Notes under the pieces: generated by a model | What the model saw: the letters and a program-made list of their open reading frames with translations, nothing else | Databases searched by the model: none | What the model was told of the DNA's origin: nothing | NCBI GenBank assembly: GCA_965232515.1 | Contig: CBDDPY010000002.1 | Coordinates: 3,456,001 to 3,520,000, forward strand | Length of the DNA stretch: 64,000 nt | From: Alphaproteobacteria bacterium | GTDB lineage: Bacteria; Pseudomonadota; Alphaproteobacteria; GCA-2731375 | Direction: 5' to 3' | Program-made: the position numbers and the translations under genes | Shown: positions 27,976 to 51,137 of the stretch, in pieces | Layout: each line of letters begins with the position of its first letter | Position numbering within the stretch: position 1 is the first letter of the stretch

Positions 27976-28926
27976 CTACTTGCCGAGCCGCGACTTGAGC
28001 TCGGTCTCGAACGCGTCGACGTTGGCCTTGGTGATGACCTTGGTCGGCACGATGATCAGGCCGTCGGCGGGGATCATTGACTTGTCGCCCTCGCGGTAGG
28101 CGGCCATCAGCTTCATGCCGCGATAGCCCCATTCGAAGGGATCCTGCACGACGGTGCCGGCGAACAGGCCCTGGCGCACGGCGCCCAGCGTGACCGGATC
28201 CTCGTCGAAGGCGATGACCGTGACCTCGCCCAGCTTTCCGGCGGCGCGCAGGGCGTCGTAGATCTTGGGCGGATTGTACGAGTAGAAGCCGACCATGCAG
28301 TCGATTTCCGGGTTGGCGACCAGCACGTCGTCCACGTTGGCGCGCGCCCGGGCGAAGTCGACGTCGTCGGCGCGGGTATCGACCAGCTCGATTCCTTTGC
28401 CGGCGACCGCCTGCTTAAAGCCGTCGATCCGCTCGCGCGCGTTGTCGGCGCCCAGAAAGCCGACGAAGCCCATGCACTTGCCGCCGTTCGGCATCGCCTT
28501 GACCGCGATCTCGCCGGCCTGAACGCCGGCCGCCGTGTTCGACGAGCCGAGATAGGCGATGCGGTCGCTGTCGGGCGCGTCGCTGTCGGTCGTGAACAGG
28601 GGCACCTGGACGGCGATGCGGTTGAAAGCGTCGATCGACGTCTTCGGGTCCACCGAGGAGATCATGATCGCGTCGATCCCACCGGCGACCAGATCGTCCA
28701 TCAAGGCGTTTTGCAGGGCGGCCGTGCCCTGGGCGGGATAACGGAACTGCAGATCGTAGCCAGGCAGCTCGCCCTGGGCCTTCTTGACCCCGGCTTCCGC
28801 GAGCTTCCAGAAATCGGACGCCGCGTTCACCACGAACGCGAACGACGGTTTGTCCTCGGCCCGCGCGTTCGCGCCGACCGCCAGGGCCGCCGTCAACGAC
28901 AGCCCCAAGAGAAGCGTTTTCCTCAC
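27976..28926 (-). CDS. sugar ABC substrate-binding protein
   Basis: GTG start with GGAGA RBS, signal peptide, DFW, TDSDAP, AFDED and VVQDPFEWG. Confidence 0.9.
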   Translation of the reverse strand: MRKTLLLGLSLTAALAVGANARAEDKPSFAFVVNAASDFWKLAEAGVKKAQGELPGYDLQFRYPAQGTAALQNALMDDLVAGGIDAIMISSVDPKTSIDAFNRIAVQVPLFTTDSDAPDSDRIAYLGSSNTAAGVQAGEIAVKAMPNGGKCMGFVGFLGADNARERIDGFKQAVAGKGIELVDTRADDVDFARARANVDDVLVANPEIDCMVGFYSYNPPKIYDALRAAGKLGEVTVIAFDEDPVTLGAVRQGLFAGTVVQDPFEWGYRGMKLMAAYREGDKSMIPADGLIIVPTKVITKANVDAFETELKSRLGK

Positions 28927-44912: not shown

Positions 44913-46451
44913 CTAACTCCCCGCGATGCGGCGGTCGTGGCCCGACCAGTGGGGTTCGCGGAGGTCCTTGCGTTTGATTTTGCCGACCGGGCTTTTGGGG
45001 AGCGGGTCGGTGCGGAATTCGACGCGGCCGGGCTTTTTGTAGGAGCCGAGGCGGTCGGTGCAGAGGTCGATGATTTCCTGCTCGGATACCGGCGTCTCGC
45101 CGTCGGTGACGCAGACGGCCATGGGCGTTTCGCCCCAGCGCTCGTGCGGCACGCCGAAGACGGCGACCTCGACCACGGCGGGATGGTCGGTGATGACGTT
45201 CTCGAGCTCGGCGGGCCAGATGTTGTAGCCGCCGGAGATGATCATGTCGTCGGACCGGTCCAGCATGTAGAGATAGCCGTTCTCGTCCAGCATGCCGATG
45301 TCGCCGGTCAGCACCCAGCCGTCGACCAGGCGCTCGGCCGTGGCTTCGGGATTGTTCCAGAAACCGACCATCTGGCCGTCGGTTTTGGCGGCGATCTCGC
45401 CGGCCTGGCCGGGCGGCAGCGGCTTGTTGTCGTCGTCGCGGATCTCGAGCTGGGCGAACGGCAGCGCGAGACCACAGGAACGCAGCGGCGTCGAGCCGTC
45501 GACGTCGGCGAACCATTGCCGCGGGCCCATCATGGCGACCGGCAGCACCTCGGTCTGGCCATAGCCCTGATAGAGCACGTCGCCGAAGATCTCGCGGCCG
45601 GTGAGCGCGGTGTCGTCGGCGATCGGCGCCGCCGCGATCAGCAGGCATTTCAACTTCGACCAGTTGCGTTCGCGCACGCCCGGCAGATGGTTGAGGGCGT
45701 TCAGCATGGTCGGGACCAGGAACATATAGGCGATGCCCTCGCCCTCCATGACGTCCAGCGTCTCGACCGGATCGAAATGGTCGAGCATGACGTTGCAGCC
45801 GCCGCCGAGCCAGACCGGCACGAACAGATAGCCGGAGCCGTGGCTGATCGGCCCGAGATGCAGGCAGGGATCGCCCGGCTCGACCGGCGGATAGAGATAG
45901 AACCAGTCGCGCCCGGCGGCGAGCCAGGCGCGATGCGTATAGGCGACGCCCTTGGACTGGCCGGTGGTGCCGCCGGTATGGCGGATGATGTAATTGTCGT
46001 CGGGATCGATCTCGAGGTTGGGATCGATATCGGAATGGCCGGCGAGCCAGGCCTCGTAGCCGTCGTCGCGCACGACGATGTGCCGGAGATCGTCGAGCTC
46101 GGCATCGATGCCGTCGACCTCGTGCGCGTACTTGTCGGCGACGATCACCGCCCGGCAGCCGGTATGGCCGAGCATGTGCAGATGCGCCTCGCGGCCGTTG
46201 CGCGGATAGAGCGGCACGCGCACGACATTGGCGACGGCGGCGCCCAGAAAGATGTCAGCCGACTCGACGCAATTGTCTTCCAGCACGCCGACGCGATCGC
46301 CGGGCTTCAGGCCCATGGCGATCAGCGCGTTGCCCATGCGCACGCCGCGCGCCCAGGCCTCGGCGAAGGTCAGCCGCCGGCCGCCGGCGACGATCGCCTC
46401 CCGCGTGGGATAAAACTGCGCGGCGCGGCGCATCTGCGTGCGCACATCCAT
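44913..46451 (-). CDS. AMP-binding acyl-CoA synthetase
   Basis: HTGGTTGQSKG, GYGQTE, TGDIG, DMIISGG and PKSPVGKI motifs. Confidence 0.93.
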   Translation of the reverse strand: MDVRTQMRRAAQFYPTREAIVAGGRRLTFAEAWARGVRMGNALIAMGLKPGDRVGVLEDNCVESADIFLGAAVANVVRVPLYPRNGREAHLHMLGHTGCRAVIVADKYAHEVDGIDAELDDLRHIVVRDDGYEAWLAGHSDIDPNLEIDPDDNYIIRHTGGTTGQSKGVAYTHRAWLAAGRDWFYLYPPVEPGDPCLHLGPISHGSGYLFVPVWLGGGCNVMLDHFDPVETLDVMEGEGIAYMFLVPTMLNALNHLPGVRERNWSKLKCLLIAAAPIADDTALTGREIFGDVLYQGYGQTEVLPVAMMGPRQWFADVDGSTPLRSCGLALPFAQLEIRDDDNKPLPPGQAGEIAAKTDGQMVGFWNNPEATAERLVDGWVLTGDIGMLDENGYLYMLDRSDDMIISGGYNIWPAELENVITDHPAVVEVAVFGVPHERWGETPMAVCVTDGETPVSEQEIIDLCTDRLGSYKKPGRVEFRTDPLPKSPVGKIKRKDLREPHWSGHDRRIAGS

Positions 46452-46621
46452 GACATTCCTCCCAAAACAGACTGGTTCCCGGCGGCCGAGTTTAAGCGGA
46501 ATTCAATCGGCGCGCAGCACGGGACGGCGACGCGGCGATGGATTTGCAAACATTTCATCCGATGCACCCGACCGCGACCGGAAATTTCAACGCCACACCA
46601 AAAATAGAAAATATATTTGCA

Positions 46622-46650
46622 TTTACTACTTAATCGTGTGTCTCTAAAAG
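46622..46650 (+). promoter_or_regulatory. putative sigma70 promoter for the Y RNA/Ro60 locus
   Basis: TTTACT-17nt-TAAAAG, preceded by an AT-rich UP-like tract and ending about 10 nt before the first RNA module. Confidence 0.45.
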
Positions 46651-46660
46651 TTGCCGCCTT

Positions 46661-46747
46661 GGTCGGGCCGGGGTTGTTGGCTTATCGCTCCCCAAGCATC
46701 GTGCTTTCAAAGCACAACGTGGCGCCAGCGACGAAACACGCCCGACC
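46661..46747 (+). ncRNA. Y RNA-like module 1 (short)
   Basis: Closing stem GGTCGGGC/GCCCGACC, inner stem GTTGTTGG/CCAGCGAC, CTTATCG and ACACGCCC motifs. Lies upstream of Ro60. Confidence 0.7.
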
Positions 46748-46798
46748 GGGACAGGTTTTTGGAGTTCGGGGACGCGTCACGAGAGATGTCGTCCTGAA

Positions 46799-46926
46799 GT
46801 CCGGGCCGGAGAAGCAGGTTTATCGTTAACCTAATGGTCGGCGGTTCGATTCCGCCTCCGAACACTGGTTCGGATAGCTCAGTTGGCAGAGCACTAGGCT
46901 TACCTGGTTCACAAACACGCCCGGGC
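46799..46926 (+). ncRNA. yrlA: Y RNA, YrlA-type tRNA mimic
   Basis: Same closing scaffold enclosing, in permuted order, a T arm (GGCGG TTCGATT CCGCC), a looped acceptor stem (TCCGAAC/GTTCGGA) and a D arm (GCTC AGTTGGCA GAGC). Confidence 0.88.
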
Positions 46927-46969
46927 ACCGAAACCGCCTGAAGGCAGTTGGGTTGAGACGGAGGATGGC

Positions 46970-47086
46970 ATGACGAATACGCGATTTATCGACGGCTGGT
47001 CGAAAACGCCGTCGACGTACGTCGCCACGTCCGTTCGCGAGACCTGGCTGAATACGTCGGCCGGCAAACCGAATTATCGGTACTGA
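46970..47086 (+). CDS. candidate 38-aa micro-ORF within the Y RNA array
   Basis: GGAGGA RBS, then ATG; translates as MTNTRFIDGWSKTPSTYVATSVRETWLNTSAGKPNYRY with mostly G/C-ending codons. Confidence 0.35.
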   Translation: MTNTRFIDGWSKTPSTYVATSVRETWLNTSAGKPNYRY

Positions 47087-47190
47087 CGACCGGCCGCTGA
47101 TCCGCGCGACAGCACAACATCACCGCAGCAAACCGGCAGGCCCAGGTTGGGCCTGACTGATCGGTCGGCGTCCCGCGTCGACAGATCCAC

Positions 47191-47322
47191 GAGGTTTGGG
47201 CCGAAGGGTCAGGCTTATCGTAGCGACGAAAGGGCGGAAAGCCCGTCGCAGCGTTCCACCGAGGACGTGAGTCCCGTGAACGCGGGCGAAGACCGCCTGG
47301 TCCGCCGACACGCCCAAGCCTT
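47191..47322 (+). ncRNA. Y RNA-like module 3
   Basis: Closing stem GAGGTTTGGGC/GCCCAAGCCTT, GCCGAAGG (GNCGAAN0-1G Ro motif), GGCTTATCG and ACACGCCC. Confidence 0.75.
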
Positions 47323-47365
47323 GCCGCGGCGACAGTGCGACGCGCACGCAATCCAAACATGAACC

Positions 47366-47505
47366 GGCGGTCCGGGCCGGCAGATCAGGCTTATCGTAGC
47401 CATAAGGCAACTGGTGTTTGGCCAGTGTAGGCGCCCCACCGAGGGCGCGAACCCCCCGTGGATGCGGGCGATGCCCGCCTGATCGAACGACACGCCCGGA
47501 CCGCC
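47366..47505 (+). ncRNA. Y RNA-like module 4 (paralog of module 3)
   Basis: 12-bp closing stem GGCGGTCCGGGC/GCCCGGACCGCC, inner stem GATCAGGC/GCCTGATC, TTATCG and ACACGCCC. Confidence 0.75.
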
Positions 47506-47522
47506 CCGTTGGGGTAGAGACG

Positions 47523-49136
47523 ATGACTTTGCGAGATCTGTTTTCGCGGCGCCGGACGCCGCAGCACGAAGCTTTGCCCGGCCAGGTGGCGAACGCGGCC
47601 GGCGGGCATGCCTTCGCCGTCGATGACTGGGACCGGCTCGACCGGTTTCTGGTGCTCGGCAGCGAGGACGGCACGTTCTACATCGCGCCGCGCGCATTGA
47701 CGCGCGAGAACGCCGAAGCCGTCGAACGTTGCCTGGCCGCCGACGGCGCGCGGGTCGTTGCCCGCGTGGTCGAAATCTCCGATGCCGGCCGCACGCCAAA
47801 GAACGACCCGGCGCTGTTCGTGCTCGCCATGGCGACGGCCAGCGACGATCAGGCGACCCGACAGGCGGCGTTGGCCGCGCTGCCCCAGGTGGCGCGGACC
47901 GGCACGCACCTGTTCCACTTCGCCGAGTTCGTCGAGGGCTTTCGCGGCTGGGGCCGCGGCCTGCGGCGGGCGGTTGCAAGCTGGTACGGCGATCAGCCGA
48001 TCGACCGGCTGGCGCTGCAGATGGTCAAGTACCGGCAGCGGGACGGCTGGTCGCACCGCGACCTGTTGCGGCTCGCGCACCCGGTCACGGCCGATCCGCA
48101 GCGTCGCGCGCTGTTCGAATGGGCCCTGCGTGGCGGCGGCGCCCCCGCGTTGCCAATGTTGGCGCAGGGGTTCGATGCGGCGCAGGCACCGGGGGCCGAC
48201 GTGCCGGCGCTGATCCGGCGGCACGGCCTGCCGCGTGAGGCGTTGCCGACCGACGCGTTGAACGACGTCGCGGTCTGGGCGGCGCTGCTGGAACGGATGC
48301 CGATGACGGCGACGATCCGCAGCCTCGCCAAGATGTCGGCGGTCGGTCTGCTGCGGCCGATGAGCGAGGCGGCCGCCCAGGTCGCGACGCGGCTGGGCGA
48401 CGGCGAAGCGCTGCGCAAGGCGCGGGTGCATCCGCTGGCGCTGCTGGTGGCGCAGTCCGTCTACGCGCAGGGCCGTGGCTTGCGGGGCAAGCTGGAATGG
48501 GAGCCGGTCGCGGAGGTGATCGACGCGCTGGACGCCGCATTCTACCGGGCCTTCGCCAACGTCGAGCCGACCGGCAAGCGGCTGCTGCTGGCGCTCGACG
48601 TGTCCGGCAGCATGACCTGGGGCCAGGTCGCGGGCTCGCCGCTGACGCCGCGTGAGGCCGCCGCCGCCATGGTGCTGGTCACCGCGGCGACGGAGCGCCA
48701 CGTGCGCACCGTCGGCTTCTCGTCGGCCGGCCGGCTGCAGTCGCGGGGCATGTTCGGTGGCAGCCGCGCCGACCACGGCCTGGTGTCGTTGCCGATCTCG
48801 CCGGGACAGCGGTTGGCGGACGTTCTGCGGATCACCGCCGATCTGCCGTTCGGTGGCACCGACTGTGCCCTGCCGATGCTGTACGCATTGGATCGGGGAC
48901 TCGAGGTCGACGCGTTCGTGGTCTACACGGACTCGGAGACCTGGGCCGGGAAGATCCACCCGGTGCAGGCCTTGCGCGACTACCGGCGCAAGACCGGTAT
49001 CGCGGCAAAGCTGGTGGTGGTCGGCATGGTGTCGAACGGCTTTTCGATCGCCGATCCGGACGATGCCGGCATGCTGGACGTGGTCGGCTTCGACGCCGCC
49101 GCGCCAGCCGTCGTCGCCGACTTCATCCGGCGTTAG
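47523..49136 (+). CDS. rsr: Ro60 / Rsr TROVE-vWA RNA-binding protein
   Basis: QVANAAGG, RLDRFLVLGSEDGTFY, RTGTHLFHF, GWGRGLRRA, KYRQRDGWSHRDLLRL, MIDAS DVSGSM, GGTDCALPM and YTDSET; 537 aa. Confidence 0.96.
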   Translation: MTLRDLFSRRRTPQHEALPGQVANAAGGHAFAVDDWDRLDRFLVLGSEDGTFYIAPRALTRENAEAVERCLAADGARVVARVVEISDAGRTPKNDPALFVLAMATASDDQATRQAALAALPQVARTGTHLFHFAEFVEGFRGWGRGLRRAVASWYGDQPIDRLALQMVKYRQRDGWSHRDLLRLAHPVTADPQRRALFEWALRGGGAPALPMLAQGFDAAQAPGADVPALIRRHGLPREALPTDALNDVAVWAALLERMPMTATIRSLAKMSAVGLLRPMSEAAAQVATRLGDGEALRKARVHPLALLVAQSVYAQGRGLRGKLEWEPVAEVIDALDAAFYRAFANVEPTGKRLLLALDVSGSMTWGQVAGSPLTPREAAAAMVLVTAATERHVRTVGFSSAGRLQSRGMFGGSRADHGLVSLPISPGQRLADVLRITADLPFGGTDCALPMLYALDRGLEVDAFVVYTDSETWAGKIHPVQALRDYRRKTGIAAKLVVVGMVSNGFSIADPDDAGMLDVVGFDAAAPAVVADFIRR

Positions 49137-49200: not shown

Positions 49201-50733
49201 TCAGCCTTCGCTGCGGTTCCACGCGCCGGTGAAGCCGAGCGGGCCGCCCTCGGCGGTGACGCCGATGGCTTCGTGCGGCGGGCGGCAGACGACGTTCTTG
49301 CCCTTCCACGGATTGGCCCAGATCGCCACGCCCTTCGGCTTGCCGGCTTGATCGACGCGCTTGTTGACGACGTGCAGGCCGCGGATGGTGATCCGGCCCA
49401 TGGCGATGTCGGAGACATCCGGATTGGTCTGGGCCCGACGCGTCATCCAGGCGCAGAGATTGGCCTCGCCGTAGTTTTTGTCGGTGCGCGGCGAGCCGTC
49501 CTTCAGGTTCGCCTTGTCCGTACCGAAGCCGATGGCCAGCCATTGCGGGCCGTTCGGCTTCACGCACCTGACCTCGCGGATCACGGTGGCGCCGCCCTGG
49601 GGCACCTCGATGCAGGCGCCGGCGGACGCCTCGTAGACGCCGCCCTGGAAGTAGTTCACGGCGCAACGGCTCTTGGCGCCATGCGCCATGACGTTGTTGA
49701 CCGAGGTGACGTCGACCATCACCAGCATCGGGCAGAACCGCTTGCGGCGCCAATCGCCCGAGGCATAGATGCCGTGCGCGCCGTTGGAGTTGGCGCAACC
49801 GTCGAGCCGCGTGTTGAACAGCATCACCCAGCGCCCGGTCGTGCGCACGCAATTGTCCATGCCCTTGATGGTCATGTCGATCAGCACCAGCCGCGAGTCC
49901 CGCCGGCTGGTGGCGCCGATGCCAGCGGTGTATTTGCCGTAAGCCTTGCCGGCCACCGTGAAGCCTTCCATGGTCATGATGCGGTCGGCGTTGTGGCTCA
50001 GACAAAAGCTGCCGCCGCCGGGCCAGCCGTCGCGACAATCGATGACGGTCGGCCGCGTCTTGTCCTGCGCCCGCAGGCGCGACGCATTACGGGCGAACGT
50101 CTCGGTCGCGATCTTGCCGTTGGCGTTCTGATGCTGGCCGATGACGCGGATCGAATGGGTGCCGGGCAGGATCGCGATGCCGCCGTCCTTGGTCCGCCAG
50201 CTTCGCCACTGCCGGTCCGCCTGCAGGATCGAACCGTTGACACCGCGCATGCCGGCATACTGCGGATTCGACCTCAGATCGGCCACACAGGCCCAGGGCT
50301 TGCCGCAATCGACCGTATCGGGGCCGGGACGGCCGAGCCGCAAATACGGTTTCACGAGCGCGAGCACCGTCCGCTCGTTCTCGGTGCCGGCGATGGGCGG
50401 CCCGGCATCGACCACCACCGGCGCGGCGCGGCCGGTCACCACGGCCGGCCCCGGCGGGGCCGGTTTTTCAGCCTTCGGCGGCTCAGCCGCGGGTGGCGCC
50501 GCGGGTGCGTCGCGCTCAGCGGACGCGGCCGGTTGCTCGACCGGCACCGGCGTCAGCAGGAATTCTCCCTCGAGGCGATAGCGTTTGCCATCGATGGTGA
50601 CCTCGAGCTGAGACTGCGCCACCGCGCCCTGCCAACCAAGCGCCAGCAGCAGCAAGCCGCCAATGCCGGCCCAACGCGCGCGCCGCCAGACAAGCGAAAG
50701 ACTGGCAAGAAATATCATTGAACACCGTGTCAT
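49201..50733 (-). CDS. exported protein with probable right-handed beta-helix
   Basis: N-terminal hydrophobic segment, Pro/Ala linker, and HGIY, HGAKSR and IEVPQGG motifs. Start uncertain. Confidence 0.6.
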   Translation of the reverse strand: MTRCSMIFLASLSLVWRRARWAGIGGLLLLALGWQGAVAQSQLEVTIDGKRYRLEGEFLLTPVPVEQPAASAERDAPAAPPAAEPPKAEKPAPPGPAVVTGRAAPVVVDAGPPIAGTENERTVLALVKPYLRLGRPGPDTVDCGKPWACVADLRSNPQYAGMRGVNGSILQADRQWRSWRTKDGGIAILPGTHSIRVIGQHQNANGKIATETFARNASRLRAQDKTRPTVIDCRDGWPGGGSFCLSHNADRIMTMEGFTVAGKAYGKYTAGIGATSRRDSRLVLIDMTIKGMDNCVRTTGRWVMLFNTRLDGCANSNGAHGIYASGDWRRKRFCPMLVMVDVTSVNNVMAHGAKSRCAVNYFQGGVYEASAGACIEVPQGGATVIREVRCVKPNGPQWLAIGFGTDKANLKDGSPRTDKNYGEANLCAWMTRRAQTNPDVSDIAMGRITIRGLHVVNKRVDQAGKPKGVAIWANPWKGKNVVCRPPHEAIGVTAEGGPLGFTGAWNRSEG

Positions 50734-51137
50734 GGTCGCGCCGACGGTCTCTTTCGACCTTTCAGGCCGGACCGTCGTGTTGCCAGACAGTATAACCGGA
50801 ACCGCGCCGATCGCGACCTCAGCGGATATGACTGGATGTGGGAAGCGGCGCGGCTGCAACAAGTTTTGTTTGGTATTTTATATAAATACAAATCGTCTCT
50901 TTAATAAAAATTCAATTTTTCTTAAATGATCTCTAATTTCACAAGTATTCTTGCATCAAAATCAAACAATCACGGCTCAAAGCGGGACGTTTTTCTGACA
51001 CAAATTGTACCATCTCGTATCGGCAATGTCCGGAAATCCCAGGATTCCGGGGTTCGGCCGTTTGGCCCGCCACCTGCAATGATAGCGGTTGGGAGCCGCA
51101 CGGGTGCGGCGTTCGGTTAACGGAGGGCAGCAGAGCC

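Follow-up and report, generated by a model that had tools for sequence, protein, structure and literature searches.

The rsr gene of this alphaproteobacterium, a Ro60 ortholog of 537 aa (47523-49136, + strand; Pfam TROVE, E = 9.6e-45; vWA_Ro60, E = 9.3e-62; third codon position GC = 0.90), is preceded by four tandem structured modules. These span positions 46655-47505 (+) of the window, that is, of the whole 64,000-nucleotide stretch of DNA analyzed here, and the rsr start lies 17 nt further on. The next real gene downstream of rsr, judged from third-position G+C, lies on the opposite strand (49201-50862), and the upstream neighbor of the array is a divergent gene for an AMP-binding enzyme; because both neighboring genes face otherwise, the array and rsr stand alone. 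No effector gene was found adjoining rsr, with Pfam giving no match on the neighboring ORFs, and a sigma-70 promoter scan of 46400-47600 found none. The spacer between modules 2 and 3 holds two further UUAUCG-like motifs and a 38-codon ORF (46969-47085, +) that has GGAGGA just upstream and stays open in the sister species. In an alignment read by eye, 13 nucleotide changes in this ORF relative to the sister species give 11 amino-acid changes, Pfam found no match, and the ORF is probably not coding.

Module 1 (46659-46750, +) is a short hairpin-type Y RNA that carries the scaffold motifs GGGCCG, GGCUUAUCG and ACACGCCC and is 96.7% identical to its counterpart in the sister species. It gave no match at E ≤ 10 to R1, a covariance model built from four sequences, modules 3 and 4 as found here and in the sister species, with a structure consisting of the outer stems and one hairpin. 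Positions 46659-46748 weakly matched RF01656 (25 bits, E = 0.2; gathering score 38), an Rfam nematode sRNA family that we take to be a stem-bulge RNA family. Another short hairpin-type module (L072:1916-1986) also matched RF01656 weakly (32.6 bits; gathering score 38), and these matches have GG.CCGGAG and GGGUUAUC in common with the family consensus. Module 2 (46795-46930, +) is a tRNA-like Y RNA of the YrlA type, with an Rfam YrlA match at 46832-46896 (35.2 bits, E = 1.3e-4, below the gathering score of 69) and an R1 score of 28.6 bits.

Modules 3 and 4 are the last two of this four-module Y-RNA array directly upstream of rsr. As whole RNAs they are predicted at 47190-47323 (R1, 149 bits) and 47366-47505 (R1, 151.3 bits), on the same strand as rsr (+), with their ends 200 nt and 17 nt from it; these R1 limits begin one base outside the start at 47191 given in the first-pass annotation, an earlier reading of this DNA. 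The predicted fold of each has a terminal stem (47190-47203 with 47306-47323 in module 3; 47366-47379 with 47488-47505 in module 4; +) and a second stem (47207-47214 with 47295-47302 and 47383-47390 with 47477-47484, respectively; +). Together these enclose an inner domain, located at 47215-47294 (+) in module 3, the region covered by alignment A6 and the model R2 described below, and predicted at 47391-47476 (+) in module 4. Across the organism's own whole genome, R1 matched at this locus alone (3/3 matches).

The outer part of these modules recurs beside rsr in other genomes. Searching 60 sources (the window and 59 rsr loci from species genomes), R1 returned 41 matches at E ≤ 0.3 in 17 of the 60, all on the rsr strand; one of the 41, L040:3356, is a false hit inside an ORF downstream of rsr. 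Across the 41 modules, in an alignment fitted to the R1 model and thus favorable to the stem-pairing figure, the two outer stems were paired in 92.4% of 876 cells and 19/26 pairs changed on both sides. None of 500 shuffles reached this pairing and covariation, and slid controls were 35-46% paired. The long stem formed by the 5' and 3' ends, by which Y RNAs are recognized, is supported by this covariation. In the same alignment GGGCC was found in 40/40 rows with letters and the next G in 39/39, UUA stood in 39-40 rows, with UUA(U/C)C placed after the second stem, and the 3' side showed a nearly invariant ACA(U/C)-GCCC. For C15, the second C of GGGCC, only 16 of 36 cells showed a pair with the partner column, and in most modules it is modeled as an often unpaired C facing a bulge of 4-5 nt. 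Because they are common to 41 modules near rsr in 17 loci, the UUAUC-holding block and CGACACGCCC constitute a generic Y-RNA scaffold.

Each module thus appears to have a Ro60-type site in its terminal stem, made up of a GGGC/GCCC helix, an often unpaired C and an opposite ACAY. The site appears to fit the vertebrate Ro60 site as described in the available text of PMC4726728, namely a 7-bp helix and one bulged cytidine, with 3 nt bulging from the opposite strand. The 5'-strand motifs of Ro60-type sites given in the available part of PMC4201824 are GGUCCGA and GNCGAAN0-1G; module 3 fits the latter exactly (GCCGAAG), module 4 (GCCGGCAG) is off at two positions, and the consensus of the present clade is GGGCCG-R-A-G. 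In animal Y RNAs and nematode stem-bulge RNAs, the loop domain is described as opening with a conserved UUAUC (PMC4726728, available text). Y RNAs are further described as modular, with Ro60 binding the terminal stem and another module binding an effector (10.1101/312249; PMC4201824; available parts), and the characterized Ro60 sites covered in the available text of 10.1101/312249 are all in the stem formed by the RNA ends.

Between themselves, modules 3 and 4 have more in common. Four blocks had been proposed in the first-pass annotation as shared by the two, and all are in place: TCAGGCTTATCGTAGC (47209-47224 and 47385-47400; 0 expected by chance), CCACCGAGG (47256-47264 and 47436-47444), CCCGTGRAYGCGGGCGA.G.CCGCCTG (47273-47299 and 47455-47481; 0 expected by chance) and CGACACGCCC, found in both modules. 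However, the UUAUC-holding block and CGACACGCCC are not peculiar to them, as they also belong to the scaffold of the 41 modules. CCACCGAGG has one unrelated copy at 28650, with 0.68 matches expected by chance and three matches reached in 4/100 shuffles. Comparing both modules bore out that the intervening hairpins differ. BLAST aligned module 3 with module 4 at 69% identity (E = 1.8e-5), and on this similarity the two are clear paralogs. The features between the stems that are special to them are GUAGC, a variable hairpin region, GCG, CCACCGAGG, CG.GA and CCCGUG.A.GCGGGCGA. Rfam run on the 336 bases alone (47180-47515) at E ≤ 10 gave no family match, including to tRNA, YrlA and Y_RNA, ARAGORN called no tRNA in either module, and both are without the conserved T-arm and D-arm of YrlA. 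With no ARAGORN call and no Rfam match, the earlier description of modules 3 and 4 as Y-RNA-type units with a shared non-tRNA inner domain holds.

We then assessed how far the inner domain extends beyond this genome using R2, a covariance model of the inner domain alone. R2 scored 92-97 bits on the four known copies and at most 25.6 bits elsewhere in 63 sources. The next best match (L040:3354-3419, 25.6 bits) lies inside the ORF downstream of rsr, is without the hairpin B1 described below, and was rejected. The combined R1 and R2 search located the domain only in the window and in the sister-species locus (L014), and in 0/58 other rsr loci; when module 3 was compared by BLASTN with 61 related genomes, only its own genome and G001 yielded full-length matches. 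Scans of metagenome and viral contigs used a pattern that required exact blocks, so that diverged relatives would escape: 73 metagenome stretches were recovered, of which 0/73 matched R1 at E ≤ 1, and none of three viral stretches was convincing (best 13 bits with R2). As far as these searches reach, the inner domain appears to be lineage-specific, held by this genome and one sister species. The motif, whose lack of conservation among homologs had been named at the outset as evidence against a conserved element, is kept in the sister species and missing from every other rsr locus searched. A non-exhaustive literature search, which left aside the PMC4201824 supplements (2014 loci), found no published account of such a domain.

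Relatives of the whole array (46600-47620) at 90-99% likeness occur on contigs of two runs (X4, X5), one an RNA-seq library labeled with another organism and the other a run labeled as coral metagenome. The RNA-library contigs, which belong to a relative, cover the locus and are not evidence of transcription. Among the differences listed, the C to T change at 47235 turns a C-G pair of the variable hairpin of module 3 into U-G and so preserves it. The rsr gene itself is present in 2/33 genomes of the family (G000-G032), both of this genus, and the closest other Rsr proteins (≤65% identity) come from other alphaproteobacterial families and other phyla; this distribution suggests that the rsr locus was acquired horizontally.

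Conservation between the two species differed among the modules. Module 4 was 98.6% identical to its counterpart (2 mismatches in 140 positions) and module 3 was 91.1% identical, compared to only 70.5% for the tRNA-like module 2. Third codon positions of rsr were 86.8% identical (13.2% divergence), at which rate, by our own arithmetic, ~18 mismatches would be expected in module 4 where 2 were observed. Because the identities of modules 3 and 4 exceed that of the rsr third positions, this comparison indicates that the inner domain is under constraint. In module 2 of the sister species (L014:2273-2407), the T-loop reads UGAAAAU where the window has UUCGAUU, and the GG of the D-loop is lost. The Rfam YrlA model found no match at E ≤ 0.01 anywhere in that locus, and eight of the nine loci searched have one or more, so the sister species may lack a recognizable tRNA-like Y RNA. 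Given how little module 4 has changed between the two species, and that the tRNA-like module 2 is decaying in the sister species, module 4 is probably the main working Y RNA of the lineage.

The 17-nt spacing between the module 4 terminal stem and the rsr start would allow Rsr to act on its own mRNA. Module 4 could accordingly work mainly in cis, as a leader where Rsr binds its own message and tunes rsr translation or stability, with module 3 as a decaying duplicate. We consider this improbable, although module 4 adjoins the start region and is 98.6% conserved, the intervening spacer (47506-47522) is identical in the sister species at 17/17 aligned bases, with one inserted base there, and module 3 both changes more (91.1%) and carries the one pair break described below. 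These observations are compatible with a role in trans as well; moreover, the distance from the last module to rsr varies in other loci, and the M. smegmatis Y RNAs upstream of rsr are described, in the available part of PMC4201824, as processed from one precursor and acting bound to Rsr.

The inner domain can be folded in two mutually exclusive ways. The first-pass annotation had drawn a helix, here Fold A, in which CAC(C)G(A)GG pairs with CC-C-GUG, corresponding to columns 74-82 with 91-97 of alignment A4. It lies at 47257-47265 with 47272-47278 (loop 47266-47271, +) in module 3 and at 47437-47445 with 47454-47460 (8-nt loop, +) in module 4, and its bulges, C77 and A79, fall within CACCGAGG (47260 and 47262 in module 3; 47440 and 47442 in module 4). 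As drawn, the pairing with a bulged C and a bulged A proved sound, with standard pairs in 28/28 cells (7 pairs × 4 sequences), and the GUGA (GNRA) cap is present in module 3, with an 8-nt loop instead in module 4. The helix can therefore be drawn in 4/4 copies, but as the native fold it is not what RNAalifold prefers. On the four sequences, which are two paralogs in two species and not independent, RNAalifold picks Fold B, whose parts are a 6-bp hairpin (B1; columns 68-73 with 80-85), a 5-bp hairpin CCCGU/GCGGG (B2) and a closing helix UCG/CGA. In module 3, RNAalifold places the variable hairpin at 47223-47249, B1 at 47251-47256 with 47263-47268 around the loop CACCGA (47257-47262), B2 at 47273-47277 with 47282-47286, and the closing pairs at 47218-47220 with 47287-47289 (all +). 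In module 4, the minimum-energy fold has two hairpins (47399-47408 and 47410-47426), B1 at 47431-47436 with 47443-47448 around the same loop (47437-47442), B2 at 47455-47459 with 47464-47468, and closing pairs at 47394-47396 with 47469-47471 (all +). All folds predicted for modules 3 and 4 branch, and their loops are purine-rich or mixed.

Homolog covariation, which had been put forward as the check on the bulged helix, left 100% of Fold A cells paired and was not significant, as 263/500 column shuffles reached it. One pair changed on both sides (82-91: A-U, G-U or G-C), one changed on one side (75-96: A-U or G-U) and none was broken. For Fold B, 98.2% of cells were paired, with changes on both sides in one pair (71-82: U-A in one sequence and C-G in three) and on one side only in two that still pair (72-81 and 68-85); one pair was broken, a C-A in hairpin B2 of the sister species' module 3. 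With four sequences this was not significant either (110/500 shuffles reached it).

Predicted energies distinguished the two modules. With outer stems fixed, Fold A and Fold B reached -74.3 and -81.6 kcal/mol in module 4 of the window and -71.8 and -78.2 kcal/mol in that of the sister species, with Fold B the minimum in both; in the module 4 ensembles of both species, pair probabilities were mostly 0.9-1.0 for Fold B vs. 0.0 for Fold A. In module 3 of the window, Fold B with outer stems fixed reached -61.6 kcal/mol, and the unconstrained minimum of -67.4 kcal/mol, which holds the inner part of Fold A (probabilities 0.89-1.0), beat it by 5.8 kcal/mol. Module 3 of the sister species gave -65.1 kcal/mol for Fold A, about -59 for Fold B and -66.4 for the minimum, again with outer stems fixed. 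For the mean of the four sequences on a common scaffold, Fold B came out ~13 kcal/mol better (-54.5 vs. -41.3 kcal/mol). The Fold A segment alone was no better than dinucleotide shuffles in 3/4 sequences (fractions of 500 shuffles folding at least as well: 0.022, 0.178, 0.142 and 0.290). The conserved GCG (columns 68-70) and CG (columns 83-84) are paired in Fold B and are unpaired or in a loop in Fold A.

That Fold A is nevertheless native, with CAC(C)G(A)GGR pairing with YCC-C-GUG, a bulged C and A and a GUGA cap in module 3, and docks a protein partner, seems to us rather unlikely. All 28 cells hold standard pairs, and pairs 82-91 and 75-96 vary yet stay paired; module 3 of the sister species has A to G at columns 75 and 82, both opposite U, so that pairing is kept. 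The only indel and the variable bases lie in the apical loop, and the minimum-energy fold of module 3 in the window includes the inner part of the helix. Against this, enforcing the helix in module 4, where its pair probability is 0.0, costs 6.4-7.3 kcal/mol, the mean energy is 13 kcal/mol worse than that of Fold B, the segment does no better than shuffles in 3/4 sequences, its covariation is reached by 263/500 column shuffles, and the GNRA cap is found in module 3 only. Given the module 4 ensemble, the mean energy, the Fold A shuffles and the role for the conserved GCG and CG, we put Fold B ahead as a preference, at slightly better than even weight, with a clearly smaller share for Fold A and the rest for a switch or another fold. 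Two further pairings were set aside: a GCGG/CCGC hairpin in the block GCGGGCGA.G.CCGCC, which overlaps the top of the second stem, and the GCGUUC/GAACGC pairing of the window's module 3 fold, which is broken in the sister species. The closing helix of Fold B uses the UCG of the UUAUCG motif; because this motif is conserved in modules with quite different interiors, it may instead be single-stranded or protein-bound.

The bulged C had also raised the idea that the inner helix is a second Ro60 site, such that each RNA would hold two Rsr rings. In this segment one unpaired C precedes G-A-(R)-G-G, an arrangement resembling the CCGAAGG of the module 3 terminal site as well as the GGUCCGA and GNCGAAN0-1G motifs (PMC4201824, available part), and a single bulged cytidine is found in 4/4 sequences, as C77 is unpaired in the drawn helix, only if Fold A forms. 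Two of the three vertebrate features quoted in the available text of PMC4726728 are missing, however: only 3 bp (CAC/GUG) precede the C, compared to a 7-bp helix, and both bulges (C77 and A79) are on the same strand, the opposite strand CCCGUG having none. The GGG before CC, invariant in 40/40 terminal sites, reads CCA here (CCG in one copy), the motif is missing from 58 other rsr loci, and its position is internal (columns 74-97 of 142), whereas the known sites in the available text of 10.1101/312249 are in the terminal stem. We consider a second Ro60 site highly improbable.

A bistable inner domain would reconcile the two folds, switching between Folds A and B upon binding Rsr, a partner or a substrate and thereby exposing or hiding the CACCGA loop. 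Both folds are 98-100% pairable in the four copies, covariation links column 82 to 71 as well as to 91, its partners in the two folds, and the thermodynamically favored fold of module 3 is not that of module 4. Yet G+C-rich sequence gives alternative pairings by chance (shuffle fractions 0.14-0.29), the four sequences lend no statistical support, and the alternative fold in module 4 has essentially zero equilibrium population, such that we assign this reading a low probability. Quite improbable, too, is its extension to a two-state inner domain that gates access to the Ro60 ring or a recruited enzyme and displaces the near-universal tRNA-like Y RNA in this genus. Our preferred model remains Fold B, and the native inner fold is more likely a multi-way junction than a single bulged helix. 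This predicted junction would comprise the variable hairpin, a 6-bp hairpin presenting the conserved hexaloop CACCGA, and the 5-bp CCCGU/GCGGG hairpin, the last of these stacked on the short closing helix.

Modules 3 and 4 share features with each known group of Y RNAs. Like YrlA (Rfam RF02553), they are encoded beside rsr and in its orientation, carry a Ro60-type motif in the terminal stem, and have a multi-hairpin inner domain opened by a YUAY/UUAUC element; unlike YrlA, they have no T-arm or D-arm, no match to the YrlA or tRNA models (E ≤ 10) and no ARAGORN call, and the YrlA-type member of the same array is module 2. YrlB of Salmonella and M. smegmatis and Yrn2 of D. radiodurans are likewise additional, Rsr-associated non-tRNA Y RNAs whose locus also encodes a tRNA-like one, with sequences restricted to their lineages (PMC4201824, available part). 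Modules 3 and 4 nonetheless fall outside the YrlB/Yrn2 type, as they are 134-140 nt long and their branched inner domain has, in Fold B, 3-4 hairpins, and module 1 fits the YrlB description better. With metazoan Y RNAs and nematode stem-bulge RNAs, as described in the available text of PMC4726728, they have in common a lower stem with a bulged C and an opposite bulge, an upper stem and UUAUC, whereas the loop domains are unrelated, the bacterial RNAs stand in tandem before rsr, and there is no Rfam Y_RNA match.

Other alphaproteobacterial rsr loci carry non-tRNA Y modules with different interiors. Seven have a class, called type X here, on the same scaffold as modules 3 and 4 (in rsr-locus coordinates, L016:1663-1773, L048:1547-1657, L019:1780-1892, L069:2375-2487, L021:292-406, L022:2475-2591 and L028:2438-2549). 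Its inner three-way junction has a GCGGGC...GCCCGC hairpin, whose loop contains GGAG, and another hairpin that is usually GCAA-capped, and 9/35 predicted pairs keep pairing through changes on both sides; the YrlA model gave no match to type X modules in the four of these loci searched. Modules 3 and 4 resemble type X in their scaffold and in a G+C-rich branched inner domain with a GCGGGC...GCCCGC hairpin, but the type X junction is closed by GGGR/YCCC, and neither CCACCGAGG nor CCCGUG is conserved in it. R2 did not match type X modules at E ≤ 10, and homology of the inner domain to type X was rejected, the common CCACCGA occurring in only 1/7 type X members. In a further non-tRNA class, type Z, the inner sequences of three loci are nearly identical (L035:2476-2577, L048:2556-2656 and L069:2622-2722). 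Seven loci (L019, L048, L016, L025, L027, L029 and L072) have 3-5 R1 matches each, upstream of rsr on its strand, and multi-module arrays combine YrlA-like and other modules. Large Y-RNA arrays seem to be common in these Alphaproteobacteria.

We propose, at even confidence, that modules 3 and 4 are old paralogous two-part Y RNAs that combine Rsr-binding stems with a private branched effector domain. By analogy with D. radiodurans, Salmonella and M. smegmatis, the array would most likely be transcribed together with rsr and then processed into separate RNAs. The first part, comprising the terminal and second stems with GGGCCG, UUAUC and ACAYGCCC, would be the Rsr (Ro60) binding module, as conservation and the literature point to, with Rsr binding the terminal stem of each RNA. 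The second part, the branched non-tRNA inner domain private to the genus, would by the same analogy serve as an effector- or partner-binding module, and that of modules 3 and 4 may recruit or exclude a partner.

Second, non-tRNA Y RNAs are already known in the form of YrlB and Yrn2; what appears to be new is a Y RNA that is 134-140 nt long and has a private, branched domain retained in duplicate, and the inner region of modules 3 and 4 may represent an effector domain of Y RNAs that is new and specific to this lineage. The picture of Ro60 in bacteria rests on tRNA-like Y RNAs, and second Y RNAs have been described as simple hairpins. In this lineage a larger, branched non-tRNA domain is maintained in two copies under strong constraint. 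The UUAUC element is common to the bacterial scaffold and to animal Y RNAs, and the several distinct classes of inner domain on this one conserved scaffold are candidates for curation as new RNA families. Should the domain recruit a partner, the identity of that partner would show what Ro60 is specialized for in this lineage.
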